Below are positions 4,704 to 24,406 of a DNA stretch of 32,000 nt, piece by piece. A program made the position numbers and the translations under genes. This stretch comes from Oleidesulfovibrio alaskensis DSM 16109 (GTDB lineage: Bacteria; Desulfobacterota; Desulfovibrionia; Desulfovibrionales; Desulfovibrionaceae), in the NCBI RefSeq assembly GCF_000482745.1, contig NZ_AXWQ01000007.1, positions 122,865 through 154,864 of the forward strand. The letters run 5' to 3'. The notes beneath the pieces are model-generated. The model worked only from the letters and a program-made list of their open reading frames with translations. It was not told where the DNA came from and did not search any database. Every line of letters begins with the position of its first letter. Position 1 is the stretch's first letter.

Positions 4704-5104
4704 GATGGCGCGGTACGACACAGGATGAAGTGGTCAACGATATCGATCTGACACCCATGATCGACATGGTTTTCATTTTGCTGATCTTTTTTATTGTATC
4801 CACAAGTTTTATCAAAGAATCCGGCGTGGTGGTGGAACGTCCCGCTGCGGCTACGGGCGAAGGCCGTCAGGTGCAGGTGGTTGTGGCCATAGACAGCGAC
4901 AACGTGCTGTGGATGGAAGGTGAAAGTGTTGATATCCGCTCGCTGGAGTCGCGCATGGCGGGGCTGCTGGCGGAAAAAGACAACCTTGCGGTGATTGTGG
5001 CTGCCGATGTGCAGTCCAGTTCCGGTGTGCTGGTGCGCGCCATCGACCTGTGCCGTCAGGCCGGAGTGCGCGATGTGAGCGTGGCCACCAAGGATGCGCC
5101 ATGA
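4700..5104 (+). CDS. exbD: ExbD/TolR-family biopolymer transport protein
   Basis: 134 aa. Single N-terminal TM with the conserved Asp context (DLTPMIDMVFILLIFFIV), then a periplasmic domain (VVVAIDSDNVLWMEGESV...AVIVAADVQSSSGVLVRAIDLCRQAGV). ATGA overlap at 4700-4703. Confidence 0.9.
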   Translation: MRWRGTTQDEVVNDIDLTPMIDMVFILLIFFIVSTSFIKESGVVVERPAAATGEGRQVQVVVAIDSDNVLWMEGESVDIRSLESRMAGLLAEKDNLAVIVAADVQSSSGVLVRAIDLCRQAGVRDVSVATKDAP

Positions 5105-5772: not shown

Positions 5773-5789
5773 AGGGCATGGAGGTGGTT

Positions 5790-7043: not shown

Positions 7044-7307
7044 CGCTGTGACGGTTTGTGAACCGGACTCCGGCGCGGGAGGCAGGGGAATGCCGCACGG
7101 CATCCTGCCCGCGCGGAACCCGCTGTCCGCCTGCGGGGGCGCCGGTCTCTTTTGCGTTTAAGCGTGCGCCTGCGGGGTGGCGGCAGTGCGTGCTGCGGCA
7201 ACGGGTCAATCGTATTGCGATACACTGGCTCTGCCTTGTGCCTGAAAAGAATGCCTGCGGGAGATTCCGGCTTTGCCGGAAGCGGCGCTTTGCATGCACA
7301 CGGGCGG

Positions 7308-7354
7308 AAAAAGCGTTCAGGCCGCCCCGTACGGGGCGGCCTGTCTGTTTTTTT
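7308..7354. terminator. Bidirectional rho-independent terminator between the convergent TPR gene and the MCP gene
   Basis: An A-run (7308-7312), then a perfect GC-rich hairpin caggccgcccc / ggggcggcctg (7318-7343, 3-4 nt loop), then a T-run (7348-7354). The A-run/T-run flanks give a U-tract on either strand. Confidence 0.6.
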
Positions 7355-7433
7355 GTGCGGGGTCTGCCGGATTGCACCTGTGTGCGGTTCATCACGCGGG
7401 TGCAGGCGCTTTACGCTGCTGTTTGCGTGCAGT

Positions 7434-9614
7434 TCATGCTGTTTTTCCGGCTTCTTCCAGCGACTGGATGAGCGAACGCAGTTCGTTGGCCTGCGTGGCC
7501 AGTTCCTGCACTGCTTCCGCCGCCTGCATCATGCCTTCGGTGGTTTCGCTGACTATCATGGTCACCTCTTCCACCGAGCGGTTTATCTGCTCCATGGCCG
7601 CGGCCTGTTCTTCGGCTGCGGTGGCGATGCTGGAAACCTGCAGTGCAGTGCCGTCCGCCACGGTGACAATGGAGTCCAGCGCCGCGCCGGAGTCGTTCGC
7701 TTTGCCTGTGGCCTGCTGGATGGCGGCCACGGCCTTGTCCATGCTTTCAATGTTTTTGCCTGCGGCCTGCTGAATGCTGCTGATGCGGTCGCCCACTTCC
7801 TTGGTGGCGCTCATGGTTTTTTCTGCCAGTTTGCGCACTTCATCGGCCACAACGGCAAAGCCGCGTCCCGCATCACCGGCGCGTGCGGCTTCAATGGCCG
7901 CGTTGAGCGCCAGCAGGTTTGTCTGGTCGGCTATATCGCTGATAACGGTCATCACCTGTCCGATGGAATCGGCCTGTTCGCCCAGCGACCGCATGCTGTC
8001 CTTGAGCGACAGAGCAGTGGTGTTAACCTGATCTATGGCCTCGATGGCCTGCTGCACGATGCCCGCCCCGTCCTGTGCGCGGTCCCGTGCTTCGGAAGAG
8101 CTGGTGGCGGCCAGTGTCGAGTTCTGGGCCACCTCGTTCACCGTGGCGTTTATCTGTTCCATGGCGGTGGCTGTTTCCTGCATTCTGTCGCGCTGTATGG
8201 AGGCACCGTTGCTTACCTGATCGACCTGTGCGGTCAGTTCGTCGGCGGCTGATGACATGCGTTCGGCAATATTGTTTGCCCGGCCGGAAAGTTCCTGCAT
8301 ATGTTCCACAAGCTTGGCCACGCGGGCCTGCTGCTCTCTGGCCTGCTCCAGAGCCTGCTGCGCATTGTCGGCCTGTAGCGAGGCTTCTTTGCTTTTGGCG
8401 TTGGCCTCGGCCATTTTTTCTTTCAGCGATCCCACCATGGTGGCAATGGAATGTTGCATGGAGGCTATTTCGGGCGAGAATGAGCCGCTTACCTGCGCAT
8501 CCAGATTGCCGCCGGCCACGTCGCTGGCGTAATGTTCGATGATGGAAAGCGGAGAGATGAGCTCGCGCCTGAGGATGAACAGTGTGGTGGCGGTGACCAG
8601 CAGCAGTATGCCCGCACCGGCGATGAAAAGGGCGTTGCGCAGTGCCGTTACGCCGGCAAAGGCTTCAGCCTCGTCTATTTCGGCGATGATGCCCCATTTT
8701 ACGCCGGACAGCACTTCCAGCGGTGCGAATGACGACAACACCGGATTGCCGTTGTAGTCGGTGATGATGCGTGTGCCGGACCTGCCCTCAAGCGCGCTGC
8801 GTGATGCTTCGGTATCCACCTTGCCTTTCTGCGGATTGCGGAATGATCCGGCAACGGAATGAAATTCCGGTTCAAGGAATGAATCCGAGCGCATCAGCTT
8901 GTCCTGACCTACAAGATAGGTTTCACCCGTTTGACCCATGCCGTCGCGCAGCTGCATGAGCGCGTTGATGCGGTCGAGGGGTATCTGCAGGATGACGGTG
9001 CCCTCAATGCCGCTTCTGTTTTCCATCTTTCTGGCGATGAAGGCGGCGGGCTCTCCGTTTGAGGGGGCATAGGGCCGGAAATCGGCAAAGCCTATATCGC
9101 TCTGCTGTGCGGTCTGCCATGCCTGCGCTATGCTGCTGCCGGCAAGCGGTCCCTGTGTCAGACTTTGTCCCAGGTCTGATTCTCTGGCCTGTGTAAAAAG
9201 AATGCGTCCTTTTCCATCCACCAGAAAAAGGTCGTAATAGCCTTTTTCGAGCACATAGTTTTCAAAGTGCGGCACCGCGCGTTTGTGCAGGCGGGTATAT
9301 GCAGCGGAGGTGATATCAAGGCCTGATGCCGTGTTTGCATCCGGTGTTTCGGCATACATGATGAAGCGTGAAAGAAAATCCGCAGCCGCCGTGCTGCGTG
9401 CCAGCTGCAGTATTTCGTTGTTCCATGAGCGGATGATTTCCTGCGCGGCATGCTGCTTGATTGCCCTGAGCGAGGTAAGCTGACCGAAATACTGTTCTTC
9501 GAGTTTGTCTGAAGCTGATGTGAAGGCGTAATACCCCATGCCGATGAACGGCAGAAGCCCGATGGCAAGGCAGAACGCGATCATTTTGGTCTTGAGCGAT
9601 ATGGTTCCCTTCAT
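7434..9614 (-). CDS. Methyl-accepting chemotaxis protein with a double-Cache-type periplasmic sensor
   Basis: 726 aa. TM1 ([21 protein letters not shown]), a periplasmic region of about 290 aa, TM2 ([20 protein letters not shown]), HAMP, and the canonical signalling hairpin [48 protein letters not shown] lies upstream of ATG 9614 on the minus strand. Confidence 0.95.
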
Positions 9615-9775
9615 GCTGAATCCTCCGGAATGTGCATGTGCACAGAAAAAATAAGCGTGCTGTCAGGTGAGCCCGGCGGCAATGATAACTCCGCAGGCTG
9701 CGCGGATATGTCGGCTCCGGCGGCGGAACAACAGGTTATCATCTGTCTGCCTGCGGCTCCGGATCTGCAGGGTGG

Positions 9776-10543
9776 TCACTCCTGCCCGGGCATGAAGTAT
9801 GCCCGGTACAGATCCCGGTACCCTTCTGACGCTTTGTACTCCTTCAGCCGGAAGGAAAACTCCTGTACAAATTTTTCTGTCACGGTGTTTTTGTTGAAGA
9901 TGGCGTACAGACCGTCAGTCTTTACTACAATATCGGTATGCGGTCTGATTCCCTTTAGGTGGAGGGAGTTCAGCACATGCCGCCCGTTGCCGTATTCCGC
10001 GGCAATGGCGTCCAGCCGGCCCATGGCCAGTTTTTTAAAGTTGATGGCGTCGGAATGCACCTTTTCCACCACGCAGTGGGTCTCGATGTAGTCCCAGAAT
10101 TCCAGAGTATAGCTGTAACCGCTTACAACACCGATTTTAAGCCCCCGCAGGTCGTCAAGCGAGCGCAGGTTTTTCTTCCTGCTCCAGAGTATCCATGGTG
10201 AATCCACCAGAGATTCTTCCGGGTAGCGCGCAAACATCTCCCGGTCGGCCGTATGGTTTGCCGAAAACAGCACATCGGCCCCGCCTGCCTGAAAAATGCC
10301 CATGGCGCGCTGCCATGGAAACGCCTTGGTGCTTTTTACCGGCACCCCCATGCCGTTAAGCACGTGGTGCACAACGCGTGTGGCAAACCCGTTGACACGC
10401 CCGTCGTGCTGGGTCTGATAGGGTGGCCATACGTCGCATACAAGCACCAGCGGCCGTTCCGTTTTTTGCGCGGCATAAAACGGCAGCGCCGTAACGGCCA
10501 GCAGAAGCATGATGAAAACAACTGTACGTATGGAATACCACAT
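9776..10543 (-). CDS. Periplasmic solute-binding protein, family 3 (PBP type 2, amino-acid-binding-like), orphan
   Basis: 255 aa. Signal peptide (VVFIMLLLAVTALPFYAAQ) and an SBP_bac_3-like pattern (VCDVWPPYQ...GFATRVV...FPWQRA...GGADVLFSANHTADRE...LKIGVVSGYSY...GRLDAIAAEY). No permease or ATPase genes are adjacent. Confidence 0.75.
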   Translation of the reverse strand: MWYSIRTVVFIMLLLAVTALPFYAAQKTERPLVLVCDVWPPYQTQHDGRVNGFATRVVHHVLNGMGVPVKSTKAFPWQRAMGIFQAGGADVLFSANHTADREMFARYPEESLVDSPWILWSRKKNLRSLDDLRGLKIGVVSGYSYTLEFWDYIETHCVVEKVHSDAINFKKLAMGRLDAIAAEYGNGRHVLNSLHLKGIRPHTDIVVKTDGLYAIFNKNTVTEKFVQEFSFRLKEYKASEGYRDLYRAYFMPGQE

Positions 10544-10916
10544 GGTTGAGGATACTACAGAAAATGCGGGGAACCAGACAGTATTTTTTTAAGTCGGCTT
10601 CTGTCCGGCGCGCACATGGCACGAGGCGCGGGTGAGCATTTTTTCACAAAAAGGGCAGACTGTAGCAAATGCTACGGTGCGGGACTGCGGGTGCCGCTAG
10701 AGTCTGTCATGCTGTCAGGCGGCGGACACAGGCGGTAGTATGGTGGCGGACACCTTGCGCACATTGCCCTTGTGCGGAATATAAAATGACTGATATGCGC
10801 TGTGGTGCCGGACTGTTCCGGCGCGCGGAAGCTGCCTGAAAGCGGCGGACCGGCCGCACGGACGCGTGCGGAGAACCGGTTGATGTTGCGCAACTTTTAC
10901 TACGCGAGGAGTGGAT

Positions 10917-12368
10917 ATGAGCGGGTCTAACAACAGAAACACGCAGGACGCCGGTGCCGGTCCCAGACCGGGATTGCTCTGGGCCGTGCTGTGCTTCACG
11001 CTGCCTGTGGGCGTCATCCTGTACGGAACCGTTTTTGTGGGAGTGCGCCCGCCCGTGCTGCCGTTGCTGGCCGCCGTGGCGCTGGCCGGATTGATGTGCC
11101 TGCCTGTGGGCTACACATGGAAAGAGCTGCAGGAAGGCATGCTGGAGTCTCTGGGCAGGGTGCAGCTTGCCGTGGCCATTCTGGTCATGGTGGGCATGAC
11201 CATCAGCGCGTGGCTGGCATCGGGCACCATTCCGGCCATCATCTACTGGGGGCTTAAACTTATCGCTCCGCAGTATTTTTTTGCATCGGCTTTTGTGCTG
11301 TGCGCCGTTGCTTCTGTGGCCACAGGAACATCGTTCGGCACCATGGGCACCATCGGTGTCGCCCTGCTGGGCGTGGGCGGGGTGATGGGTTTTTCGCCCG
11401 CCATGACCGTGGGGGCCATCGTTTCCGGAGCCTATTTCGGTGACAAAATGTCTCCGGTTTCCGACTCCACCAACATTACCGCCACCATCTGCGAAACTCC
11501 GCTTTTCACGCATATCAGTTCCATGATGTGGACCACCGTGCCCGCCGCGCTGGTGGCCATGGCCGGCTTTATGCTGCTGGGGGCCACGCAGACGGCTGCC
11601 TCCGGCAGTCTGGAAAGCCTTTCCGGCATTCTGGCGGGCCTTGAAAACGGCTTCAACCTGTCGCCGGTGGTATTCATTCCTCCGGTGCTCATGGTGATAC
11701 TGGCTTACAGAAGATACCCCGTGCTGCCGGTCATGGGCGTATGTCTGCTGAGCGCGCTGCTCATCGCGCTGGCAGGCGGCGCCACGCTGGATGTGCTGGC
11801 AAAGCAGCTGACCACCGGCTACAAGGCCGCCACGGAATCGGCACAGCTTAACAAGCTGCTTTCGCGCGGGGGGCTTATGTCTGTCATGCCCACCATTCTG
11901 CTGCTGACTTCGGGTATGGCTTTCGGCGGCATTCTGGAGCGCGCCCGCGTGCTGGAAGTGCTTCTTGATGCCATGCTGCGCGGTTCCAGGTCGCCTGTGC
12001 GGCTTGTGGCGTCCACGCTGGGGTCCGCATATATCATACTGCTGGGCACCGGCAGCCAGATGCTGGCTGCCATTATTCCCGGCCGTGCCTTTCTGCATGC
12101 CTACGATGAAAACGACCTGCACCGCTCCGTGCTTTCGCGCACCTGCGAAGACGCCGGTACGCTTGGCTGCCCGCTGGTGCCGTGGAGCGTGCACGCATTT
12201 TATATAATGGGGGTGCTGGGTGTCAGCGCCTATGAATTTGCCCCGTACGCTTTGCTTAACTGGGGCGTTCCCGTGTTTTCCATTCTGTGCGCCATGACCG
12301 GCATCGGCATGCGCAGGCGCGACGGTTCGCCCGTGCGCCGTGCACCCGCACAGGTGGAAAACGCCTGA
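10917..12368 (+). CDS. nhaC: NhaC-family (Na+/H+ antiporter-type) membrane transporter
   Basis: About 483 aa and polytopic. NhaC-family motif region GAIVSGAYFGDKMSPVSDSTNITA. ATG 10917 follows GAGGAG (10906-10911); the track start at 10911 is a GTG two codons upstream. Confidence 0.85.
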   Translation: MSGSNNRNTQDAGAGPRPGLLWAVLCFTLPVGVILYGTVFVGVRPPVLPLLAAVALAGLMCLPVGYTWKELQEGMLESLGRVQLAVAILVMVGMTISAWLASGTIPAIIYWGLKLIAPQYFFASAFVLCAVASVATGTSFGTMGTIGVALLGVGGVMGFSPAMTVGAIVSGAYFGDKMSPVSDSTNITATICETPLFTHISSMMWTTVPAALVAMAGFMLLGATQTAASGSLESLSGILAGLENGFNLSPVVFIPPVLMVILAYRRYPVLPVMGVCLLSALLIALAGGATLDVLAKQLTTGYKAATESAQLNKLLSRGGLMSVMPTILLLTSGMAFGGILERARVLEVLLDAMLRGSRSPVRLVASTLGSAYIILLGTGSQMLAAIIPGRAFLHAYDENDLHRSVLSRTCEDAGTLGCPLVPWSVHAFYIMGVLGVSAYEFAPYALLNWGVPVFSILCAMTGIGMRRRDGSPVRRAPAQVENA

Positions 12369-12402
12369 CAAAACATGAAAAAACGGGAGACCGGTGTATA
12401 GT

Positions 12403-13965
12403 ATGGCTTCAGAATCCATAAAGAACGTCATCTTCATCATGCTGGATACTCTGCAGTTCAACTATCTGGGCTGCTACGGCAATAAAGAGGTGAAGACGCC
12501 TAATCTGGACCGTTTTGCCGGGGAAGGCTTTCTTTTTGAAAACGCCTACAGCGAAGGGCTGCCGACCATCCCTGTGCGCCGTGCGCTGATGACCGGACGC
12601 TACACGCTGCCTTACGGCGGCTGGAAGCCGCTGGACCCCGAGGATACCACGCTGACCGATATTCTGTGGTGCCGCGAGGTGCAGACGGCTCTGGTATACG
12701 ATACGCCGCCCATGCGGCTGCCCAAATACGGCTATTCGCGCGGGTTTGACTATGTGCGGTTCTGCAACGGGCACGAACTGGATCACGAGACCTTCAGCAA
12801 GGTACCGCTTTCTGAAAAGTTCAAGCCGGAAGACTATGTTTCGCCCAACTGGCTTACGCGTGATGCGGACGGCGAACTGGACAGCTCCGGCAAATCGCTG
12901 CTGCGCGAGACGGAATGCTATCTGCGTCAGCGGCAGAAGTGGCAGTCGGACGCGGACAACTATGTGGCTGTGGTTGCCCGCGAAAGTGATGACTGGCTGC
13001 GGACCAAGCGCGATCCCGAACGTCCGTTCTTTTTGTGGGTTGATTCCTTTGACCCGCACGAACCGTGGGATCCGCCTTCGGTGTGGGAAGGCCGCCCCTG
13101 CCCGTACGATCCCGACTACACGGGCAATCCGCTGCTGCTGGCGCCGTGGTCCGAAGTGGCCGGTGTGCTGACTGAAGAAGAATGCAGGCATATCCGCGCC
13201 CTGTACGCCGAAAAGGTGACTCTGGTGGACAAGTGGATGGGCCGTCTGTTTGATTCTCTGAAAGAACAGGGGCTGTGGGACAACACCATGGTTGTGGTCA
13301 CATCGGACCACGGACAGCCCATGGGCGAAGGCGAACACGGCCACGGTATCATGCGCAAGTGCCGTCCGTGGCCCTATGAAGAGCTGGTGCATGTGCCCCT
13401 GATGGTGCATGTCCCCGGTCTGAAAGGCGGTAAGCGTATCAGCAGTTTTGTGCAGAACGTGGACATATCGGCCACCATCATGGACGCGCTCGGATACTAT
13501 AATACGGAAGCCCTGCATGATGCGGGGCACGAAAGCATAAGCACCTACGATGCGGAAGATATGCACGGCATCAGCCTGCTTCCGGTCATGCGCGGAGAAA
13601 CGCAGACCGTGCGCGATTTTGCCATTGCCGGGTACTATGGCATGTCATGGTCTATTATAACACATGATTACAGCTATATACATTGGATAACGCGCGAGAT
13701 CGACACAGACTCCATGAACAAGATATTCTACGACGGTTCCGGCAAGGGCGGTAACGCCGGCAGGCAGTCCGCCCAGCTGGAGGTCAAGGAAGAGATGTGG
13801 ACCTGTGTGCCCGGTGCCGAGGTGGCATTGCCGCAGCAGGACGAGCTGTACGACCGGAAAAACGATCCGTTCCAGCTTAACAACATCATCGCCGAACAGC
13901 CGGAAAAAGCGAAAGAGCTGCTGCAGCAGCTCAAGCTGTTCATCGGCGAGCTGAGAACAACCTGA
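12403..13965 (+). CDS. Sulfatase-fold (alkaline-phosphatase superfamily) hydrolase with Thr at the formylglycine position; no signal peptide
   Basis: About 520 aa. N-terminal metal-site strand VIFIMLDTLQ, then FENAYSEGLPTIPVRRALMTGRYT, which aligns without gaps to the sulfatase signature (C/S-x-P-x-R-xxx-x-TGR). Later family motifs are DSFDPHEPW and VVTSDHGQPMGEGEHGHG. The start is ambiguous between GTG 12394 and ATG 12403. Confidence 0.85.
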   Translation: MASESIKNVIFIMLDTLQFNYLGCYGNKEVKTPNLDRFAGEGFLFENAYSEGLPTIPVRRALMTGRYTLPYGGWKPLDPEDTTLTDILWCREVQTALVYDTPPMRLPKYGYSRGFDYVRFCNGHELDHETFSKVPLSEKFKPEDYVSPNWLTRDADGELDSSGKSLLRETECYLRQRQKWQSDADNYVAVVARESDDWLRTKRDPERPFFLWVDSFDPHEPWDPPSVWEGRPCPYDPDYTGNPLLLAPWSEVAGVLTEEECRHIRALYAEKVTLVDKWMGRLFDSLKEQGLWDNTMVVVTSDHGQPMGEGEHGHGIMRKCRPWPYEELVHVPLMVHVPGLKGGKRISSFVQNVDISATIMDALGYYNTEALHDAGHESISTYDAEDMHGISLLPVMRGETQTVRDFAIAGYYGMSWSIITHDYSYIHWITREIDTDSMNKIFYDGSGKGGNAGRQSAQLEVKEEMWTCVPGAEVALPQQDELYDRKNDPFQLNNIIAEQPEKAKELLQQLKLFIGELRTT

Positions 13966-14035: not shown

Positions 14036-14701
14036 ATGGAAGATTTCTGGAGAATACGCGCCACGGACACCGCATGGAAAGGTGTGCTGCATCTGGCGTC
14101 GCCGCGCAGGTACAGCAGGGGCGAAGTGATTATCCGCGCCGGAGAAATGGTGGACAGCCTGTTTTATCTCGAATCCGGCGAAGTGCGCATGATCCGTACC
14201 AGTATGGAAGGATCGGAAAAGATCCTGATGTACATCGAGGAAGGCACTCTGTTCGGCGAAACGCCGTTTTTTACCGGTCAGCCCATCCTGAGCACGTTTG
14301 TGTGTTCGCGGCCTGCGGTTATCTGGCGCTTTTCGCGGCACAGCGTCTATGCCGATCTGCTGCCCAACCATCCGGAAATCGTCAGTTCGCTGCTGCACAC
14401 GTTTGCGGCAAAGGTGAGCACGCTCAGCAACCAGTCCGCCTCGCTGGGACTGCAGAATGTGGCGGAGCGGCTGTGTACGTTTTTGTATGTCACCAGCGGC
14501 GAGAGCATATCCGGTGCCCATGGCGCCGAACTGAAACTTTCCATGAAAATGCGCGATATCGCCAACCTGCTGGGCGTGCATCGCACCACGCTGTACAAAG
14601 CCATCCGCGATCTTGAAAAAGAGGGTGTGCTGGAAAATTTTACCAGAGACAGTGTGCGCATTGCCGATGTGACGCGGTTTCTGGAAATGGTGCATAAATA
14701 A
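14036..14701 (+). CDS. Crp/Fnr-family transcriptional regulator
   Basis: 221 aa. N-terminal cNMP-binding-like beta-barrel (GEVIIRAGEMVDSLFYLESGEVRMI...GTLFGETPFF) and a C-terminal HTH (MKMRDIANLLGVHRTTLYKAIRDLEKEGVL). There is no FNR-type N-terminal Cys cluster. A GGAGA RBS sits 5 nt upstream. Confidence 0.85.
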   Translation: MEDFWRIRATDTAWKGVLHLASPRRYSRGEVIIRAGEMVDSLFYLESGEVRMIRTSMEGSEKILMYIEEGTLFGETPFFTGQPILSTFVCSRPAVIWRFSRHSVYADLLPNHPEIVSSLLHTFAAKVSTLSNQSASLGLQNVAERLCTFLYVTSGESISGAHGAELKLSMKMRDIANLLGVHRTTLYKAIRDLEKEGVLENFTRDSVRIADVTRFLEMVHK

Positions 14702-14702
14702 C

Positions 14703-14724
14703 GGACCGCTGCGGCGGTTTTTTT
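14703..14724 (+). terminator. Putative weak rho-independent terminator after the crp-family gene
   Basis: Short hairpin accgc-tgcg-gcggt (14705-14718) followed by a 7-T run (14718-14724). Confidence 0.4.
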
Positions 14725-14790
14725 CTCACGCAGGGGCGGGCTGCATTGCCCGGCACCTGCCGTGCGGAACATGACGGCAAGGAGCTGTAT

Positions 14791-15102
14791 ATGAGTTTGC
14801 AGACTGTGACGCCGGGCGATCTTGATGCCCGCATAGAACAGACCGCGCAGGGTATTGTGCTGTTTCACAAGGAACTGTGCCCGCATTGCAAGAATATGGA
14901 AAAAGTGCTGGCCAAATTCGGCGCCAAAAATCCCGATGTGGAACTGCTGGCCGTGGACAGCGAAGCAGACCCCGCGGTGATGGAAGCCTACGGCGTGGAG
15001 CGTGTGCCGTCGCTGGTCATCGTGCGCGGGGGGCGGGCCGTGTATACCCGCACCGGTCTTATGAATCCTAAGGAACTGACAACACTGTATCATTCAGTAT
15101 AG
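14791..15102 (+). CDS. Thioredoxin-fold protein with a CPHC active site
   Basis: 103 aa. The C-P-H-C motif (14878-14889) lacks the canonical preceding Trp, and a cis-Pro context is present (VERVPSLVIV). ATG 14791 follows AAGGAG (14779-14784); the track start at 14746 adds 15 unsupported residues. Confidence 0.85.
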   Translation: MSLQTVTPGDLDARIEQTAQGIVLFHKELCPHCKNMEKVLAKFGAKNPDVELLAVDSEADPAVMEAYGVERVPSLVIVRGGRAVYTRTGLMNPKELTTLYHSV

Positions 15103-15133
15103 CGCCGCGGCGCGGGGAGTATGGCTGAGCACC

Positions 15134-16051
15134 ATGGAAACCAGACAGGTTGATGTGCTTATACTGGGCGGCGGGGTGGCCGGCATGACCGCCGCCGTTT
15201 ACGCCGCCCGCGCGGGGCTGCGTGTGACGCTGCTGGAGGAGAATGCCTGCGGCGGGCTGGTAAACTGGACGCGTGTTGTCGAAAATATGCCGTCCTACAT
15301 CAGCATACCCGGCATGGAACTGGCCGACCGCATGGCGGAACAGGTGGCCGCGCTGGGGGTGGATGTGGAAGAGGCCGCCTGCATTGAAGAAATATCACTC
15401 GCGGCCGGAGACAAAACTGTCGTGGCCGACGATGTGCGGTATGAGGCCCGTGCCGTCATTGCCGCCACGGGGCGCAGGCCGGTGCTGCTGGACTGTGCCG
15501 GCGACTGCTGTCAGGTGCATTACTGTGCCATATGCGACGGCAGCGCGTACAAGGGCCGGCACGTGCTGGTGGTGGGCGGCGGCAACAGCGGATTTGACGA
15601 GGCTCTGGCCCTGCTGGACACGGGTGTGGCACGGGTGACTCTGATCGAGGCGCAGGACAGGTTTTTTGCCGCGGCCGCGGCGCAGCGTGCGCTGGCCGCC
15701 CGTGAGGGTGCAGTCATGTATACCTCCACGCGGGTGACGCAGCTGCACGGGACGGATGCTCTTGAGTCCGTCACGCTGACCCGTGCAGACGGTTCGGAAC
15801 AGCAGCTGCCGTGCGACGGAATATTTGTGTTCATGGGGCAGGAGCCAAGCACGCAGCTTTTCCGCGGGCAGCTGGAACTGGACGCACAAGGCTACGTAGT
15901 CACTGACGGCCTGATGGCCACATCGGTGCCCGGCGTGTTCGCGGCGGGTGACGTGCGGCCCAAGCGTTACCGGCAGATAACCACGGCCCTGTCTGACGGC
16001 ACCGTGGCCGCGCTGGAGGCGGAAAGGTATATCCGCCGTACGGCGGGCTGA
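15134..16051 (+). CDS. trxB: Low-molecular-weight thioredoxin-reductase-like flavoprotein (TrxB family) lacking the NADPH 2'-phosphate motif
   Basis: 305 aa. FAD GxGxxG (ILGGGVAGMTAA), redox-active CAIC (15524-15535; compare CATC in E. coli TrxB), a second dinucleotide fold (VVGGGNSGFDEA) and the C-terminal GVFAAGDV...YRQ...A..DG motif. Where the HRRDxxR motif is expected, the sequence reads IEAQDRF (15644-15664). Confidence 0.88.
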   Translation: METRQVDVLILGGGVAGMTAAVYAARAGLRVTLLEENACGGLVNWTRVVENMPSYISIPGMELADRMAEQVAALGVDVEEAACIEEISLAAGDKTVVADDVRYEARAVIAATGRRPVLLDCAGDCCQVHYCAICDGSAYKGRHVLVVGGGNSGFDEALALLDTGVARVTLIEAQDRFFAAAAAQRALAAREGAVMYTSTRVTQLHGTDALESVTLTRADGSEQQLPCDGIFVFMGQEPSTQLFRGQLELDAQGYVVTDGLMATSVPGVFAAGDVRPKRYRQITTALSDGTVAALEAERYIRRTAG

Positions 16052-16085
16052 TGCCGGTTTTTTACTGCGGTCGCCGGGCAGGGGC

Positions 16086-16502
16086 ATGATGCGCGGCGGC
16101 TCCGGATTTTCGCGTCCTTTCCGGCTGACGCTGTATGACCCAGACCCGCGCCGGTGCCGGGCCACGGCGGATATGCTGCGTCGCGAGCTGGGCCGGCATG
16201 TGTTTCGGGACTTGCGCGGCGGCGTTGTTTCGGCCAATGTCACCGAAGTTGCCTGTTATCTGGCCATAGCCCGGCAGGGATACGCCGACAGTGTTCCCGT
16301 GCTGGAGCTTGACGGCGTTCCGCTGAGCCGGTGTCTGGTGCTGGAACCGCCTCATGTGCGCAGCTTTGCCGCATGGCTGGAGCAGCAGGCGCAAAAGGAA
16401 GACAGGGGCGGTTCTCAGCCGCCCTATCTGCAGCATTGTGGCGGCAGGTTCCCCGACAGGAGTCAGGAGAGCGAACTTATTTTTCCGGAGGATAAACCGT
16501 GA
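16086..16502 (+). CDS. Hypothetical small protein, possibly a degenerate thioredoxin/glutaredoxin-like fold
   Basis: 138 aa, with genome-typical G/C-ending codons. Its last codons carry the GGAGGA RBS (16487-16492) for the next gene, and its TGA overlaps the GTG start of that gene (GTGA at 16499-16502). The pattern RLTLYDPDPRRCRATADMLRREL ... SVPVLELDGVPL loosely resembles a Grx beta-alpha-beta / cis-Pro layout with only one Cys. I recognise no family confidently. Confidence 0.5.
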   Translation: MMRGGSGFSRPFRLTLYDPDPRRCRATADMLRRELGRHVFRDLRGGVVSANVTEVACYLAIARQGYADSVPVLELDGVPLSRCLVLEPPHVRSFAAWLEQQAQKEDRGGSQPPYLQHCGGRFPDRSQESELIFPEDKP

Positions 16503-18997
16503 ATCCCATTGAGAAACTGTGTAGGGACGAGGCCGGCAACTCTGCCGTGCTTCAGGGGAACATCGCTTTTGCCGTGGGCTGCGTGCGCGCCGGCATCCAT
16601 GCCGCGGACGGTTATCCCGGCACACCCAGTTCCGAAGTGATAGATAAAGGCCTTTCGCAGGTGCAGGACATGATCGCCGTGGGATGGTCCGTCAGCGAGG
16701 CCGTGGCCGCCGGTGTGGGGCACGGACATTCTCTGGCCGGACGCGACTGCGTCGTGACCATGAAAATACCCGGCCTGTATCAGGCGGGTGACATATTCAC
16801 CAGCGTGGCCACCTATACCGCTGACCGCGGCGGGCTGATATTTTATGTGGCCGCCGACTATACACCCAGTTCCACGCAGCACGTCATCGACCCCCGCTAC
16901 CTGTACAAAAGCTGCTTTGTTCCCGTTTTCGAGCCGCGAACCCATCAGGAACTGCACGAGTCGGCGCTGGTGGCGGTGGAAATAGCCCGCCGGTTCAATA
17001 CGCCCGTGGTTATCCAGCCCAGCGGCGTGCTGTGCCACAGCGAAGGCCTCGTGCGCATGATGCCCGTCACTTCCCGCGAGCCTGCTCCGGTGTCTCCGCT
17101 GCGGCTGCAGAACTCTCTGCCCGTGTTTGCCCGCGCCAACTACGACAAAGTTATGGCCGAACGCATGCCCGGTCTGCTGGAAATGGTGGAGCAGAGCCCC
17201 CTCAATGTGCATATCAAAGGTTCGGGCAAGCGCGGTGTCATCACCCACGGCATCAACTCCATGTACATGGATGAGTACCGGGCGCTGTTCGACAACGACA
17301 TCGATATCCTCTCGCTGGGATTCACCAACCCGCTGCCCATGGAAAAAATCCGCAATTTCTGCGAATCCATCGAAGGCGAAGTGTTTGTCATCGAGGACGG
17401 CTACCGCTTTATTCAGGAAGCATGCGGTGCCGCAGGTCTGAAGGTGACCGGCAAGGAAGAATACAGCAACGTGACGGAATGGACGCCTGCCAGCATTGCG
17501 GCATTTCTGGGCCAGCAGGCCGCGGCGGCTCCCCGTCCGCAGGCTGCGCCTGTGCCGCGTCCGCCCATGATATGCGCCGGATGCCCGTACCGCCTGTTCG
17601 GCGAAGTGGTTGCCCGTATGAAGCGCAAAGGCGAGATTGAAGCCGTTTTCGGTGACATAGGCTGTAATACGCTGCTGTATTTTCTGGGTGCGCTTGATAC
17701 AGGCCTTGCCATGGGCGCCAGCGAAAGCAAGCGTACCGGCTATGTTCTTTCCAAGCCCGAATCGGTGAGCAAATGCATCAGCCTGCTGGGCGACGGCACA
17801 GAATGCCACAGTGGCATGGATGCCACCAGAAATGCCGTGTTCCGCAACGTGGCCGGTGTAAAGGTGGTGCTGGACAACGAATGGACAGCCATGACCGGCG
17901 GTCAGCCCGGTCCTACTTCTCCCGTCAACCTTGCGGGCGACCCCACACGGTTTGATCTTGTGGCATCGCTCAAGGCGCAGGGGGCGGAAGTGGCGCTCAT
18001 CGACGCATACGACATGAAAAGCGTGCGCAAAGGGCTCAGGGCAGCGTTGAAAGCCGCGGAAGACGGCACCTTTACCACGCTTGTCATCCGCGGCACCTGT
18101 ATCCGCAAGGTACCCGCAGCCGATTACGGCCAGAAGCTTATCGTGGATACCGAAAAATGCGTACAGTGCGGCGCGTGCAATATCTGCTCGGGCATTCAGC
18201 CTGATGAAAACGGTGTGCCTTTCTGGAACAACCTGTGCACCGGCTGCGTTTCCAAGACTCCGGCCTGTCTGCAGATGTGCCCCAAGGGTGCCATAGCGGT
18301 GGATACCGAATGCAGCACCGGCGCCTGTGCCGAAAAGCCCGTACTGCCCGAAGCTCCTGAACATATCGATGTGCCTGTGCTTACCGATGCCCAGCGTCCC
18401 GCTCGTCTCAGCCTCGGGATCCGCGGTGTGGGCGGGCAGGGCAACCTGTTCTTCGGCAAGGCGCTGGCGCAGATGGCGTTCATCGCCGGTTACGGCGAAA
18501 AGAATATCCTGAAGGGCGAAACCCACGGTATGGCCCAGATGGGCGGTCCCGTCATTTCCACATTTGCCTGCGGCGACGTGCACAGCACCCAGTTTGTGCC
18601 GGGTACGGCTGATGCGCTTATCGTCATGGAGCAAAGCGAAGTGCTGCGCCCCGGTTTTCTTGATATGCTGCGCCCCGAAGGCACTGTTCTGCTGGCGGAA
18701 ACCGTCATTGTGCCGCAGGGCTTCGACCCGGAAAAATACCCCACCAGACAGGCCATTGACGAGCTGCTTTCGGGCTGCAACGTGGTGCGTATCGACGTGC
18801 TGAAGATGGCCCTTGCACTGGGAGACGAACGCGGCCGCTGCGCCAACGTGGTCATGCTGGGTGCGCTCAGCAGGCTGTCGCCGTTTGACGCCTTCCCCGT
18901 TGAGGTATGGCTGCAGGCGCTTAAAAAAGTCAGCCCCCGTCCCGCGGTATGGACACTGAACCACGCCGCCTTTCTGCAGGGGCGCACACTGGTGTAG
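16499..18997 (+). CDS. Fused IorA-IorB-type 2-oxoacid (indolepyruvate/arylpyruvate):ferredoxin oxidoreductase
   Basis: 832 aa. IorA-like N-terminus (LQGNIAFAVGCVRAGIHAADGYPGTPSSEVID), a TPP-binding region (GDIGCNTL ... LLGDGTECHSGMDA...VLDNEWTAMTGGQP), two ferredoxin-type Cys motifs (CVQCGACNICSG; CTGC...CLQMCPKGAI), then an IorB/gamma-type domain (LGIRGVGGQGNLFFGKALAQ). GTG start with a strong RBS. Confidence 0.85.
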   Translation: MNPIEKLCRDEAGNSAVLQGNIAFAVGCVRAGIHAADGYPGTPSSEVIDKGLSQVQDMIAVGWSVSEAVAAGVGHGHSLAGRDCVVTMKIPGLYQAGDIFTSVATYTADRGGLIFYVAADYTPSSTQHVIDPRYLYKSCFVPVFEPRTHQELHESALVAVEIARRFNTPVVIQPSGVLCHSEGLVRMMPVTSREPAPVSPLRLQNSLPVFARANYDKVMAERMPGLLEMVEQSPLNVHIKGSGKRGVITHGINSMYMDEYRALFDNDIDILSLGFTNPLPMEKIRNFCESIEGEVFVIEDGYRFIQEACGAAGLKVTGKEEYSNVTEWTPASIAAFLGQQAAAAPRPQAAPVPRPPMICAGCPYRLFGEVVARMKRKGEIEAVFGDIGCNTLLYFLGALDTGLAMGASESKRTGYVLSKPESVSKCISLLGDGTECHSGMDATRNAVFRNVAGVKVVLDNEWTAMTGGQPGPTSPVNLAGDPTRFDLVASLKAQGAEVALIDAYDMKSVRKGLRAALKAAEDGTFTTLVIRGTCIRKVPAADYGQKLIVDTEKCVQCGACNICSGIQPDENGVPFWNNLCTGCVSKTPACLQMCPKGAIAVDTECSTGACAEKPVLPEAPEHIDVPVLTDAQRPARLSLGIRGVGGQGNLFFGKALAQMAFIAGYGEKNILKGETHGMAQMGGPVISTFACGDVHSTQFVPGTADALIVMEQSEVLRPGFLDMLRPEGTVLLAETVIVPQGFDPEKYPTRQAIDELLSGCNVVRIDVLKMALALGDERGRCANVVMLGALSRLSPFDAFPVEVWLQALKKVSPRPAVWTLNHAAFLQGRTLV

Positions 18998-19013
18998 GCC
19001 CATGTGATACCAA

Positions 19014-19045
19014 GGCCCGGAGTGTGACGCTTCGGGCCTTTTTTT
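19014..19045 (+). terminator. Rho-independent terminator/attenuator between the oxidoreductase and the acyl-CoA synthetase
   Basis: Hairpin ggcccgga (19014-19021) / ttcgggcc (19031-19038) with a 9-nt loop, followed by a 7-T run (19039-19045). Confidence 0.6.
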
Positions 19046-19085
19046 ACCCCGCAACACACTGTAAAAAATTTGAAAGAGCCTCCGC

Positions 19086-21548
19086 ATGAGCATGACCATT
19101 CCCATTGATTATTCGCGCATAACGGATCTGTTCCGCACCGCGCGGGAAGAAGGCCGTGATTTTCTGTATGAGTACGAGGTCTACACCCTGCTTGCCAGTT
19201 CCGGAGCGGAAACCCCGCCGCGGGCGAATCTGATTCCCCGCGGGGCCAGACCCTCGGACGAGGAACTGATGGCCATTCCCGGAGACAGGGCCGTGCTCAA
19301 GATTGTCTCGCCCGCCATTGTGCATAAGACCGAAGTGGGCGGAGTGCGCATTGTGGAAAAAACGCCGGACCGCATCCGCTCCGCCATGCGGCGCATGCTG
19401 TATGAAGTGCCGGAGAATTTTGCCGCCTGCATAGAACGCGACCCCGACCATGCCCCGCTGCCGTACAGAGGCCTGCGCGGAGAAACATTACAGGCTGCCA
19501 TCAGCAGAGACCTGAAGGGGGTACTGCAGGTACAGTTCATGCCGCCGGATTCCGGTGCGTTCGGCAATGAACTTATTGTGGGCCTGCGGCGCACGCGCGA
19601 GTTCGGAACTGTGATAAGCGCCGGTCTGGGCGGTACGGATACCGAGCTGTATGCCGAGCGCTTCCGCAAAGGGCAGGCCGTTGTGGCCGCGTCCACCCAG
19701 CTGACGGACGAGGATGCTTTTTTCGAGCTGTTCCGCAAAACCATTTCGTATCGCAAGCTGGCCGGTCTGACACGGGGACAGCAGCGCATTGTCACCGATG
19801 AACAGCTGGTGGAATGCTTCGGGTCGTTCATCCGCATGGCACGTTATTTTTCCGACGCCAACCCGCAAGCGCCTTTTGTCATTGATGAGCTGGAAATAAA
19901 TCCCTTTGCATTCAGTGATTACCTGATGGTGCCGCTGGACGGCCTGTGCCGTTTCAGTGAACCGGCACAGCCGGCCAACGTCCGGCCCGTGGCAAAAATA
20001 GACAGACTGCTGCACCCGCGGTCGATCGGTATTGCCGGTGTTTCAGCTTCCCGCCGCAATTTCGGGCGTATTATTCTGGAAAACGTGCTCAACGAAGGTT
20101 TCGGGGCTGAAAACGTCACGGTGTTCCGTCCCGGTGCTGCTCCGGGCGATACGCAGGAAGGCGTACGCGTGCTGCCGGAACTGGCCGCGCTGGGGCTTGA
20201 TGCGGCAGGCGGCAAGGTGGCGCCGCAGAATGCGCTTGATCTGTTTGTAGTGGCTGTGGGGGCACAGCAGGTGCCCGATATGGTGGATGAGATCATCAGA
20301 CTGGGGGCTGCCCACAGTGTTATGCTCATACCCGGCGGCATGGGTGAAACAGAAAACAGCCGTGAACGTGCGGCGCGCGTCATAGCGCGCATCAACGATG
20401 AACACGGCAGGGGCGACGGCGGGCCGGTGTTTCTGGGCGCCAACTGCATGGGGGTGGTTTCCCGTCCGGGCCGGTATGATACATGGTTCATTCCGGAGCA
20501 GAAACTGCCCAAGGACAGAAGCGGCACCTGCCACAGGGCCGCGCTTGTCAGCCAGAGCGGCGCGTTCATGCTGCACCGCAGCAGCCAGTGCCCCGAACTG
20601 AAACCCGCCTATATGATATCCATGGGCAACCAGACAGACCTGACGCTGGGAGACATGGTCACATATTTCAAGGACAGCGATGCGGTGGATGTCATCGCTG
20701 TATACGCCGAAGGATTCAATGATCTTGACGGGCTGGCATTCTGCCGCGCTGTGCGCGAAGCTGTCATAGCCGGAAAGGAAGTTGTTTTTTACAAGGCCGG
20801 GCGCACGCCGGAAGGCCGCAGCGCCACCAGCGGACACACTGCTTCGCTGGCCGGCGATTATATGGTCTGCGAAAGCTGCGTACGTCAGGCCGGAGCCATT
20901 GTTGCCCGCACCTTTACCGAGTTTCAGGAGCTTTTTCTGCTGGCGGAGAAGCTGTACGGCAAAAAAGTGCGCGGCACCCGGCTGGCGGCTGTGAGCGGAG
21001 CGGGCTTTGAGGCCGTGGGCATGGCGGACTCCATCCAGTCCGACGATTACCGCATGGAACTGGCGTCGTTTTCCGCTTCAACAGTGGCAGCCATAAGCGA
21101 ACTGCTGCGTGGCAAAAAACTTGATGCGCTGGTTACGGTAACCAACCCGCTGGACATCAATCCCGCCGCCGATGACGAAGTGCACGCCGAAGTGGCCCGC
21201 CTGCTGGCGGCAGACCCCGCTGTGGACGCCGTTGTCATCGGACTTGACCCGCTGTCACCCGCGGTGCACACGCTGGACAGTCCCGATGTGCCGGATTTTT
21301 CCATTCATGAAGAAGGTGCCGTGACACGCCGCATCATACAGGTGGCTGCCTGCAGTGATAAGCCCGTGGTGGGCGTGGTGGACGGCGGCAGGTTGTTCGA
21401 CCCCATGCGGGCGCAGGTGCTGGCCGGCGGAGTGCCGGTGTTTTCCGTATGCGACAGGGCTGTCTCTTCACTGGCTGTGTACATAGAAGGCAGGCTGCGG
21501 GCGGACATACTGCGGGCCTGTGTCCATGACAACAGCTGCAACGGCTGA
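19086..21548 (+). CDS. ADP-forming acyl-CoA synthetase (NDP-forming acetate/aryl-acetate--CoA ligase family), fused beta-alpha order
   Basis: 820 aa. N-terminal ATP-grasp part (YEVYTLLASSG...LKIVSPAIVHKTEVGGVRIV), then a CoA-binding Rossmann part (RSIGIAGVSASRRNFGRIILENV), a phospho-His loop (SGHTASLAG) and a CoA-ligase flavodoxin-like part (RLAAVSGAGFEAVGMAD). Confidence 0.85.
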   Translation: MSMTIPIDYSRITDLFRTAREEGRDFLYEYEVYTLLASSGAETPPRANLIPRGARPSDEELMAIPGDRAVLKIVSPAIVHKTEVGGVRIVEKTPDRIRSAMRRMLYEVPENFAACIERDPDHAPLPYRGLRGETLQAAISRDLKGVLQVQFMPPDSGAFGNELIVGLRRTREFGTVISAGLGGTDTELYAERFRKGQAVVAASTQLTDEDAFFELFRKTISYRKLAGLTRGQQRIVTDEQLVECFGSFIRMARYFSDANPQAPFVIDELEINPFAFSDYLMVPLDGLCRFSEPAQPANVRPVAKIDRLLHPRSIGIAGVSASRRNFGRIILENVLNEGFGAENVTVFRPGAAPGDTQEGVRVLPELAALGLDAAGGKVAPQNALDLFVVAVGAQQVPDMVDEIIRLGAAHSVMLIPGGMGETENSRERAARVIARINDEHGRGDGGPVFLGANCMGVVSRPGRYDTWFIPEQKLPKDRSGTCHRAALVSQSGAFMLHRSSQCPELKPAYMISMGNQTDLTLGDMVTYFKDSDAVDVIAVYAEGFNDLDGLAFCRAVREAVIAGKEVVFYKAGRTPEGRSATSGHTASLAGDYMVCESCVRQAGAIVARTFTEFQELFLLAEKLYGKKVRGTRLAAVSGAGFEAVGMADSIQSDDYRMELASFSASTVAAISELLRGKKLDALVTVTNPLDINPAADDEVHAEVARLLAADPAVDAVVIGLDPLSPAVHTLDSPDVPDFSIHEEGAVTRRIIQVAACSDKPVVGVVDGGRLFDPMRAQVLAGGVPVFSVCDRAVSSLAVYIEGRLRADILRACVHDNSCNG

Positions 21549-21580: not shown

Positions 21581-21611
21581 GCGGCCGCGGCATCAGTCGC
21601 GGCCGCATTTT
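21581..21611 (+). terminator. Possible weak terminator hairpin after the acyl-CoA synthetase gene
   Basis: 9-bp perfect stem gcggccgcg (21581-21589) / cgcggccgc (21598-21606), followed only by a short T-stretch (attttcat). Confidence 0.3.
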
Positions 21612-22246: not shown

Positions 22247-24406
22247 ATGAAAGAAGTATTAACAACGTGTCCTTACTGCGGTACAGGGTGCGCTTTTTAC
22301 CTTCAGGTGCATGACGATACTGTGACAGGAGTCCGTCCGGCCGTCAGCAACACGGTGAATAAAGGCAGGCTGTGTTCCAAGGGGCATTTCGGCTTTGATT
22401 TCATTCACCATGGTGACCGGCTGAAAACTCCGCTTATCCGCAGGGATGGCCGGCTGGTGCCCTGCAGCTGGGAAGAAGCCTACGATTGTATCACATCGCG
22501 GCTTTCAGAGATTATCCGTCAGAGCGGGCCCGATGCCGTGGCAGGATTCAGTTCCGCCCGTTGTACCAACGAAGAAAATTATCTGATGCAGAAGTTCATG
22601 CGTGCGGCCGTCGGCACCAATAATGTCGACCACTGCGCCCGTCTCTGACACGCTCCCACCGTGGCCGGTCTGGCCGCAGCATTCGGAAGCGGAGCCATGA
22701 CGAATTCCATTGATGAACTGGAGAGCATGGGGGCCGGCGATGTGATTTTTGCCGTGGGTACAAACACCACGGAATGCCATCCGGTCATAGGGGCCAATAT
22801 GCTTCAGGCCGTGCGTCAGGGGGCCCGTCTGGTGGTGGCCGACCCGCGCGCTGTTACGCTTGCGGCGCACGCCGCGGTGTGGCTGCGTCTGCGTCCCGGC
22901 ACTGATGTGGCGCTGCTGAACGGCATTGCTCATGTGATTATTTCCGAAGGTCTTGCCGACGAGGCATTCATCGCGCAGCGCACCGAAGGATATGCGGCGT
23001 TCCGCGAAACCGTGCTGCGCTGCACGCCGCAAAAGGCATCGGCAATCACAGGCGTACCGGCGGACGACATCCGCTCCGCGGCACGCATTCTGGGCTGCGC
23101 CGCCAACGTCTCCACCTATTACACCATGGGCATCACGCAACACACCTCCGGCGTGGACAATGTGCGCGCCGTGGCCAACATCGCGCTGCTTACCGGTAAT
23201 GCGGGGCGGCCGGGTACAGGGGTCAATCCGTTGCGCGGACAGAACAATGTGCAGGGCGCATGCGATATGGGTGCCCTGCCCGATGTTTTGCCCGCGTACC
23301 AGCGTGTGACCGACCCTGCCGTGCGTGAGCGCTTTGCGGCCGCGTGGGGCAGAGAAGTTCCCGGAAAGCCGGGGTTGCGCATACCTGACGTGCTGCACGG
23401 GCTGGAACACGGCACTGTGCGGGCTTTGTATGTTTTTGGTGAAAATCCCATGCGCAGCGATCCTGATGTGGGCCATGTGGAACACTGTCTGGACGCTGCG
23501 GAGTTTCTGGTGGTGCAGGATATTTTTCTTACCGAGACAGCCGCAAAGGCGCATGTGGTGCTGCCGGGAGCGTCCTTTGCCGAAAAGGACGGCACGTTTT
23601 CCAGTACCGAACGCAGGGTGCAGCGCATCCGCAGGGCGGTGCCCCCCGCAGGCGGCAGCCGCCCGGACTGGCAGATACTCAGCGAGCTTCTGACCCGTAT
23701 GGGGGCAGGGCCGGAGTATGGTTCGCCGGAGGAAATATTTGACGAAATGCGGGCGCTGACCCCCAGTTACGCAGGCATAACCTATGCCCGTCTGGAAAAG
23801 GGCGGCCTGCAGTGGCCTTGCCCGGATGTTGATCATCCGGGCACGCCGGTGCTGCACCGGAACGCATTTATGCGCGGCCGGGGGGCTTTTCTTGCCGTGG
23901 AGCACCGTGAACCGGCGGAACTGCCGGATGACGCGTATCCGCTGATGCTGACCACCGGAAGGGTTGTTGCCCATTATCATACCGGCACCATGACCCGCCG
24001 CTGCTGGGGGCTGAACGGCGTGGCCCCTGAAGAGCAGGTGGAGCTGCATCCTGACGATGCGGCGCCTCTGGGAATAGCCGACGGCGATATGGTGCGGCTC
24101 ACTTCGCGCCGGGGCAGTATGACCGCGCGGGTGCATGTGACCGAAAAAACCATGCGCGGTCTGGTCTTTGTCACATTCCACTACAGCGAAAGCTGCGGCA
24201 ACGTGCTGACCAACAGCGCGGCAGACCCTGAAACAGGCACCGCGGAACTGAAAATATGTTCGGTGCGCGTGGAAAAAGCAGACCGGCAGGGCCCCTGTCC
24301 GGCGGATACCGCCGAACGGCGGCCGGTGGCGGCTGCTCAGAAACACTATTCCGAACCGGCGGTGCATCCTGCCGGAACACCGGAGAAAATATGCAATCCC
24401 AGTTGA
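22247..24406 (+). CDS. fdhF: Selenocysteine-containing cytoplasmic formate dehydrogenase (FDH-H type, Mo/W-bisPGD), UGA-134 read as Sec
   Basis: Track ORFs 22247..22648 and 22661..24406 are in the same frame and separated only by TGA 22646-22648. The joined sequence reads [30 protein letters not shown], the conserved FDH active-site context (Sec followed by His). The N-terminus MKEVLTTCPYCGTGCAFYL is the FdhF-type [4Fe-4S] motif, with no Tat signal. The joined product is 719 aa, close to E. coli FdhF in size. An AGGTGG RBS lies 6 nt upstream. Confidence 0.9.
22649..22677 (+). promoter_or_regulatory. Bacterial SECIS element directing Sec insertion at UGA 22646-22648
   Basis: 12 nt after the UGA there is a hairpin gtggcc (22661-22666) / ggccgc (22672-22677) with loop GGTCT. 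As I recall it, the E. coli fdhF SECIS has the same 12-nt spacing and the same GGUC(U) apical loop. Confidence 0.65.

Follow-up and report, generated by a model that had tools for sequence, protein, structure and literature searches.

The window analyzed here, a 32,000-nucleotide stretch of contig NZ_AXWQ01000007.1 from Oleidesulfovibrio alaskensis DSM 16109, carries the O. alaskensis copy of the Trx3/TR3 or desulfothioredoxin (Dtrx) operon, described in the literature on strain G20 under the name mre (metal reduction) operon. The thioredoxin/thioredoxin reductase system is already known; the new lead is a conserved sulfatase-like partner that lies outside the interval 14036-21548 covered by a preliminary description of this DNA. 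Because the sulfatase-like gene and a transporter accompany the thioredoxin pair across loci, the conserved unit begins upstream of 14036, at nhaC (10911), which is followed by the sulfatase-like gene. We hold, at slightly better than even confidence, that Dtrx and TR3 serve a conserved module in which the sulfatase-like enzyme, the transporter, and a small thioredoxin-fold protein act on an imported anionic ester. The question of what Trx3/TR3 does physiologically dates from 2011, and the metal-reduction role described in G20 was not reproduced in D. vulgaris; the search for targets is now redirected to the Thr-type sulfatase-like enzyme, the transporter, and the small thioredoxin-fold protein, and away from the oxidoreductase encoded downstream. 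The genes discussed are as follows.

10911-12368, plus strand: NhaC-family transporter (Pfam Na_H_antiporter, E 6e-45; TIGR00931, 368.8 bits against a cut-off of 370)
12394-13965, plus strand: sulfatase-like protein of the alkaline-phosphatase superfamily (Pfam Sulfatase, E 2e-46)
14036-14701, plus strand: Crp/Fnr-family regulator (PF00027, cNMP_binding, E 1e-19; PF13545, HTH_Crp_2, E 9e-12)
14791-15102, plus strand: desulfothioredoxin (Trx3/Dtrx, MreD; PF00085, E 7.5e-12)
15134-16051, plus strand: TR3-type thioredoxin reductase (MreE; TIGR01292, 254 bits, below the cut-off of 343)
16086-16502, plus strand: ORF138, a predicted small thioredoxin-fold protein (no Pfam match; has a family of homologs)
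16499-18997, plus strand: fused IorA-IorB-type 2-oxoacid:ferredoxin oxidoreductase (IorAB, MreG; POR_N, TPP_enzyme_C and POR domains)
19086-21548, plus strand: ADP-forming acyl-CoA synthetase (ACS; ATP-grasp_5, CoA_binding_2 and Succ_CoA_lig in one chain)

The thioredoxin pair and the mre operon

The list of open reading frames (ORFs) together with Pfam and TIGRFAM profile searches placed six ORFs between 14036 and 21548, all on the plus strand, in the order crp, trx, TrxB-like, ORF138, IorAB and ACS, just as the preliminary description had them. Proteins of the window were 99-100% identical to proteins of Oleidesulfovibrio (Desulfovibrio) alaskensis. That description had also called the thioredoxin a CPHC protein without the preceding Trp, and its active site does read L-C-P-H-C (14878-14889) with no Trp ahead of the motif. 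The best PDB match was 2L6C (E 4.2e-29 over residues 12-103), which with 2L6D belongs to nuclear magnetic resonance work on the thioredoxin of Desulfovibrio vulgaris Hildenborough (DvH), and the matches after these two dropped to about 1e-8. A DvH-type contig encodes the exact 2L6C sequence, which is Trx3, desulfothioredoxin, and in an alignment of 29 Dtrx sequences including the window protein, the segments CPHCKNMEKVL and GLMNP(K/R)E formed invariant columns. Judged from sequence, the window thioredoxin is an ortholog of DvH Trx3. The redox potential of the DvH protein was reportedly given in 2012 as about -181 mV. DvH Trx3 has disulfide isomerase activity and no protein-disulfide reductase activity (Valette et al. 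2017, PMC5627308).

The reductase, MreE, is a low-Mr enzyme 64% identical to DvH TR3, whose gene adjoins that of Trx3, and carries its active site CAIC at 15524-15535 in the context G-D-C-C-Q-V-H-Y-C-A-I-C-D-G. The published markers of TR3 are a C-x-Q replacing GR/KG, V-H-aromatic ahead of CxxC, and the lack of HRRD (PMC5627308). MreE has C-C-Q and V-H-Y ahead of its CxxC, and the HRRD motif for the 2'-phosphate is absent, with IEAQDRFFA at that place and VERMDRFFA in DvH TR3. The acidic residue in place of HRRD would fit a preference of MreE for NADH; DvH TR3 prefers NADH and is specific for Trx3 (PMC5627308). At the thioredoxin-contact 'FF' position, MreE lacks the Pro of the DvH enzyme (CDG-S-A-Y vs CDG-A-P-Y), a residue that is a minor TR3 marker described as 'mainly P' (PMC5627308). 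The pair is of the Trx3/TR3 type and is not the housekeeping system, as had been proposed, since G20 has a separate TR1-group reductase (YP_388558.2, 307 aa; Valette 2017, Table S3, PMC5627308).

In G20, the operon encodes MreD, a thioredoxin, MreE, a thioredoxin reductase, and MreG, a protein of the pyruvate ferredoxin/flavodoxin oxidoreductase family (Li and Krumholz 2009, as relayed in excerpts of PMC8963506 and PMC4142287). The control by a Crp/Fnr protein suggested for this pair is itself in print for G20, where, according to the same excerpts of PMC8963506 relaying Li and Krumholz (2009), a CRP-type regulator controls the mre operon and the crp gene is the site of a transposon insertion. 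The letters A to G would match the seven genes nhaC, sulfatase-like, crp, trx, trxR, ORF138 and iorAB, and nhaC is then probably mreA.

The conserved neighborhood and its sulfatase-like protein

Scanning one genome per species by alignment gave 80 loci with Dtrx relatives, and one DvH-type locus brought the set to 81; neighbors were scored by tblastn and by clustering of all ORFs, and the denominators given are the loci with enough flanking DNA. The loci came from Desulfovibrionaceae (including Bilophila and Mailhella), Desulfoluna, Desulfopila, Desulfomonile, Syntrophobacteraceae and SAR324. TR3 was directly downstream of Dtrx in 63 of 70 loci. An ortholog of the sulfatase-like gene at 12394-13965 was near Dtrx in 60 of 69 loci, and in 51 of the 69 it was directly upstream on the same strand. 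One clade of 18 loci, the window among them, has the order NhaC-Sulf-Crp-Dtrx-TR3-small ORF, and in 18 clade-A loci nhaC immediately preceded the sulfatase-like gene; outside the loci with IorAB or ACS, members of the NhaC clade had unrelated genes beyond the small ORF, some of them on the opposite strand. Elsewhere the transporter beside the module was of the DASS/CitMHS, MFS, EamA or TAXI-TRAP type, the family varying and one usually being present, and the small thioredoxin-fold protein (ORF138 family) recurred in many Dtrx loci. Approached from the sulfatase side, Desulfomonile tiedjei showed the order Sulf-Trx-TR-small-MFS, and a metagenome contig showed Trx-TR, a solute-binding protein, DctM, then Sulf-small-Sulf.

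Some genomes hold the module twice. A second, paralogous Crp...Sulf-Dtrx-TR3 module was seen in an Oleidesulfovibrio sp. (L025; proteins P0150 and P0055), with the sulfatase-like protein 67% and Dtrx about 50% identical to those of the first module, and two copies were present in further genomes (L009/L032, L014/L019 and L017/L035).

The sulfatase-like protein, whose true start is likely the ATG at 12403, aligns with type I sulfatases at the metal ligands and oxyanion-pocket residues D18, R62, H222, D305, H306 and K322, all of them conserved, and is predicted to have the type I sulfatase fold. The Cys or Ser that is the precursor of formylglycine was not found in it: in PDB alignments Thr58 occupies the Cys/Ser position of C/S-x-P-x-R, giving T58-I-P-V-R62. 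No signal peptide was found, and the protein is therefore taken to be cytoplasmic. Conservation was high, with orthologs 60-80% identical across orders, the T-x-P-x-R motif invariant, and 141 of 523 residues at least 98% conserved among 61 orthologs. The protein matched 866 clusters at E<=1e-30, from which representatives (P0305-P0454) were compared; Thr was seen in every one of the 61 orthologs, in 119 close homologs, and, at identities as low as about 25%, in 129 of the 139 cluster representatives, which places the protein in a large uncharacterised Thr-type branch of PF00884. The possibility that Thr at the formylglycine position is a special mark of the Dtrx-linked clade was ruled out, as this residue is general in that branch. 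The name 'sulfatase' is not safe for this protein.

The 138-residue ORF is a real, conserved gene. Its family has at least 70 members, all annotated as hypothetical, that follow either TR3 or the sulfatase-like gene; Cys57 and a cis-Pro-like Pro71 are invariant, there is no CxxC, and the window protein has a C-terminal extension of about 40 aa relative to homologs of 84-103 aa. An AlphaFold2 model (pLDDT 78) has the topology beta-alpha-beta-alpha-beta-beta-alpha, and Foldseek searches with it gave weak matches (best E 4.7e-3), nearly all of the top 50 being thioredoxin-fold proteins. A sequence-profile comparison of ORF138 with Dtrx and a profile search of PDB sequences were both not significant, so that the thioredoxin-like fold is a weak prediction drawn from structure modeling only. 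At one locus without Trx/TR genes (L085, 5001-6823), the member of this family that comes after a sulfatase-like gene does not have the invariant Cys, a single case hinting that this Cys is tied to the presence of Dtrx/TR3.

Transcription signals and the downstream genes

Signals on the plus strand that bear on the extent and control of the unit are listed here.

10883-10892, plus strand: palindrome GTTGCGCAAC, adjoining the nhaC ribosome-binding site; a zero-spacer version, common to the window and L001
14705-14727, plus strand: terminator-like hairpin followed by seven U, between crp and trx (z-score -3.7)
19012-19047, plus strand: strong intrinsic-terminator-like hairpin (13-bp stem, seven U, -25.2 kcal/mol, z-score -3.8)
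21581-21606, plus strand: terminator-like hairpin after ACS, from the hairpin scan

The regulator has a Leu aligned with Arg82 of CRP and no FNR Cys cluster, and all Crp/Fnr equivalog models scored far below their cut-offs, suggesting a protein of neither the cAMP type nor the FeS-FNR type. In 15 of the 18 clade-A loci (L004-L020, L081), a 16-bp palindrome, TGTTGC-N4-GCAACA, stands about 120-170 bp ahead of nhaC; the rest of the operon does not contain it, and it may be the operator to which the embedded Crp-family regulator binds. The sequence GTTGCGCAAC in the window is possibly a variant of it. Another palindrome variant, at 10661-10676, was rejected as the operator for being absent from L001. 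A sigma-70 promoter scan of the window stayed at background level, and a search of it for riboswitches or leader RNAs gave no Rfam match. The hairpins at 19012-19047 and 21581-21606 flank ACS, which is therefore probably a separate transcript, and this fits an mre unit that ends at mreG.

IorAB shares 62% identity with its DvH ortholog, which is encoded at the corresponding place of that locus. The domain content of IorAB matches while the equivalog models stay below their cut-offs (TIGR03336, 320 vs 651 bits; best IorB model, 94 vs 237), and the assignment is therefore made at the family level only. All ACS equivalog models were likewise below cut-off, giving a family assignment only. In the DvH-type locus (L081), an ELFV-type amino-acid dehydrogenase at 11849-13078 stands between the small ORF and IorAB; no remnant of it was found in the window (16330-16502 compared), where the small ORF instead has about 40 more residues and reaches into the start of IorAB. 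IorAB and ACS, together with the ELFV enzyme in D. vulgaris, would form an ordinary module that takes an amino acid to a 2-oxoacid, an acyl-CoA, and finally an acid with ATP, and that is attached downstream only in the Oleidesulfovibrio/Nitratidesulfovibrio lineage. In the window, IorAB would be co-translated with the small thioredoxin-fold gene, with ACS behind a terminator.

The preliminary description had proposed that the Trx/TR pair may be dedicated to activating or repairing the neighboring IorAB, acting through a thiol/disulfide switch like that of pyruvate:ferredoxin oxidoreductase (PFOR). In both G20 and D. vulgaris the genes lie side by side, and the stop codon of ORF138 overlaps the GTG start of IorAB (AAACCGTGAAT) with GGAGGA upstream, which suggests that the two are translationally coupled. 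By the test that this description had itself set, synteny with IorAB/ACS is poorly conserved across genomes: of 54 loci other than the window, only 2 had an IorAB ortholog after the pair and 3 an ACS ortholog. Both genes were downstream only in Oleidesulfovibrio (the window and L001) and Nitratidesulfovibrio (D. vulgaris), and ACS alone was kept in one Desulfovibrio metagenome-assembled genome; a restriction of the adjacency to Oleidesulfovibrio was ruled out by the D. vulgaris-type locus, which has the same downstream genes. The protective thiol/disulfide switch of D. africanus PFOR is on a C-terminal Cys-bearing extension. The Pfam POR domain of IorAB reaches residue 829 of 832, and no PFOR-like C-terminal Cys extension was found there. 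A study from 2011 is said to have found that TR3/Trx3 could not reactivate oxygen-protected PFOR and that only TR1/Trx1 did so. PFOR is a known target of Trx1 (PMC5627308), and MreG is reported, in the excerpts of PMC4142287, to function together with Trx and TR when metals are reduced in vitro, while against an activator stand the lack of protein-disulfide reductase activity in DvH Trx3 (PMC5627308) and the absence of a DvH Trx3 response to oxidative stress (bioRxiv 10.1101/2024.09.27.615472). An activator is thus conceivable for G20 and DvH and is not favored, given the rarity of the synteny, the missing protein-disulfide reductase activity of Trx3, and the lack of a PFOR-like C-terminal Cys extension in IorAB; we regard it as quite unlikely. 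What stands of the preliminary description is the set of six ORFs, the non-housekeeping nature of the pair, and the control by a Crp protein as reported for G20; its dedicated oxidoreductase activator finds little support.

The remaining genes in the vicinity appear unrelated upstream (201-10543), where an ABC ATPase comes first, a DUF3450/ExbB/ExbB/TonB_C cluster with a TPR protein occupies 1856-7043, and two genes are on the minus strand, one for a methyl-accepting chemotaxis protein of the dCache type (7434-9614) and one, divergent, for a solute-binding protein (9776-10543). Downstream, at 22247-24406 on the plus strand, the alpha subunit of a formate dehydrogenase appears as two ORFs in one frame split by a TGA at 22649-22651; this in-frame TGA comes right after HCARL and is probably a selenocysteine codon.

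Proposed function and known systems

In the favored reading, a module of sulfatase-like enzyme, transporter, and small thioredoxin-fold protein served by Dtrx and TR3, electrons would pass from NADH to TR3 (FAD, CAIC) and on to Dtrx (CPHC), as is known from the DvH orthologs. Dtrx would be a specialized, non-housekeeping dithiol protein whose partners are encoded just upstream and downstream, presumably the cytoplasmic Thr-type sulfatase-like enzyme, the anion transporter, and the small single-Cys thioredoxin-fold protein. The module may import an anionic ester-type compound, one processing step of which would need dedicated thiol/disulfide exchange, and the unit would be under the embedded Crp-family regulator, most likely through an operator upstream of nhaC.

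Several points weigh against this reading. The tie between Dtrx and the sulfatase-like protein is one of gene neighborhood only. The sulfatase-like gene is missing from 9 of the 69 loci with enough upstream sequence, and the canonical TGTTGC-N4-GCAACA operator was not found in the window, where matches were at chance level only. Trapping with DvH Trx3 names neither a sulfatase nor DVU0380, the DvH sulfatase-like protein, as a partner, and the sulfatase gene is nowhere mentioned in the accompanying study of DvH trx3-operon mutants (bioRxiv 10.1101/2024.09.27.615472). The adjacency of IorAB and ACS is common to two genera, and in G20, MreG is reported to act with the Trx/TR pair (excerpts of PMC4142287).

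The model of Majumder et al., in which Trx3 takes part in sulfur transfer upstream of sulfite, for example as a carrier of adenosine phosphosulfate (APS) or on a route to organic sulfur, shares some of the same evidence. The module is restricted to sulfate- and sulfite-reducing Desulfobacterota, and a sulfatase-like partner with DASS-type transporters would suit sulfur-oxyanion chemistry. DvH trx3-operon mutants lag on sulfate and thiosulfate and not on sulfite, and the lag is rescued by cysteine and not by sulfide (bioRxiv 10.1101/2024.09.27.615472). This phenotype, however, is a lag only, in marker-replacement mutants that may be polar on downstream genes, no APS-binding component is known, and the source is a preprint; we rate this model as unlikely.

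The published G20 model is one of cytoplasmic metal reduction and detoxification, with electrons passing from NAD(P)H through TR, Trx and MreG to U(VI) or Cr(VI). The crp::Tn mutant was reportedly sensitive to U, Cr, and As, with the operon induced by U(VI). Adventitious reduction of chromate and uranyl is common among flavoproteins and FeS proteins. The core module is kept in gut and marine Desulfobacterota, most of them without MreG. Genetic work and in vitro assays in G20 link the operon to the reduction of U(VI) and Cr(VI) (Li and Krumholz 2009 and Li et al. 2014, as relayed in excerpts of PMC8963506 and PMC4142287), whereas DvH deletions of trx3, trxR3, and the regulator reduce U(VI) like the parent (bioRxiv 10.1101/2024.09.27.615472). 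The published physiology of the G20 and DvH operons is in conflict, and a metal-reducing role for the pair seems to us unlikely.

A bolder version of the favored reading, which we consider very improbable, is that Dtrx/TR3, the Thr-type sulfatase-like enzyme, the single-Cys thioredoxin-fold protein, and the transporter make up an unrecognised pathway of sulfate- and sulfite-reducing Desulfobacterota, in which a sulfuryl-Thr is released reductively as sulfite. A sulfuryl or similar oxyanion group would move from the imported ester to the enzyme Thr, and the low-pKa thiolate of Dtrx would strip it off reductively, as in phosphoadenosine phosphosulfate (PAPS) reductase, giving sulfite without ATP-dependent activation of sulfate. 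The idea is attractive because Thr cannot release sulfate hydrolytically as formylglycine does. It is doubtful on thermodynamic grounds: the couple of a simple sulfate ester and sulfite is estimated at about -320 mV, compared with about -181 mV for Dtrx.

The closest known system is TR3/Trx3 of DvH (DVU0377/DVU0378; 2L6C), which has the same CPHC motif, a Dtrx about two thirds identical as read by eye from the alignment, a reductase with C-x-Q, V-H-aromatic and no HRR, and the gene order NhaC-Sulf-Crp-Trx-TR-small with IorAB and ACS later on. It differs in the ELFV amino-acid dehydrogenase between the small ORF and IorAB, in lacking the 40-aa C-terminal extension of the G20 small ORF, and in having A-P after CxxC-D-G of the reductase, where the window has S-A. 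The G20 mre operon is from the same organism and has the same genes (CRP, MreD, MreE, MreG) with no sequence difference; the difference is one of reading, as comparative genomics favors the sulfatase-like gene and the transporter, and not MreG, as the conserved partners.

Among sulfatases, the closest named characterised enzyme is the Mn-arylsulfatase of E. faecium, which has a formylglycine derived from Cys61 where the window protein has Thr (PMC12421950). Type I sulfatases and phosphonate monoester hydrolases share the fold, the metal-binding Asp and Asp-His residues, and the oxyanion-pocket Arg, His, and Lys, while the window protein is unlike them in having no signal peptide and no aligned counterparts of K110 and H112. 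In the Trx1/TR1-PFOR system, from the same bacterial family, a 2-oxoacid:ferredoxin oxidoreductase is the target of a thioredoxin, but Trx1 is of the canonical WCGPC type, TR1 depends on NADPH, and the target has a C-terminal Cys-bearing extension that is absent from IorAB. The clostridial glycine/betaine reductase operons offer a parallel in which a Trx/TrxB pair is encoded with one enzyme system and serves that system, and the thioredoxin-dependent PAPS/APS reductases offer one in which the attack of a thiol on a sulfuryl group sets sulfite free. The Grd proteins and CysH have no homology to the window partner, a protein of the alkaline-phosphatase fold, and any likeness in chemistry would be by analogy.

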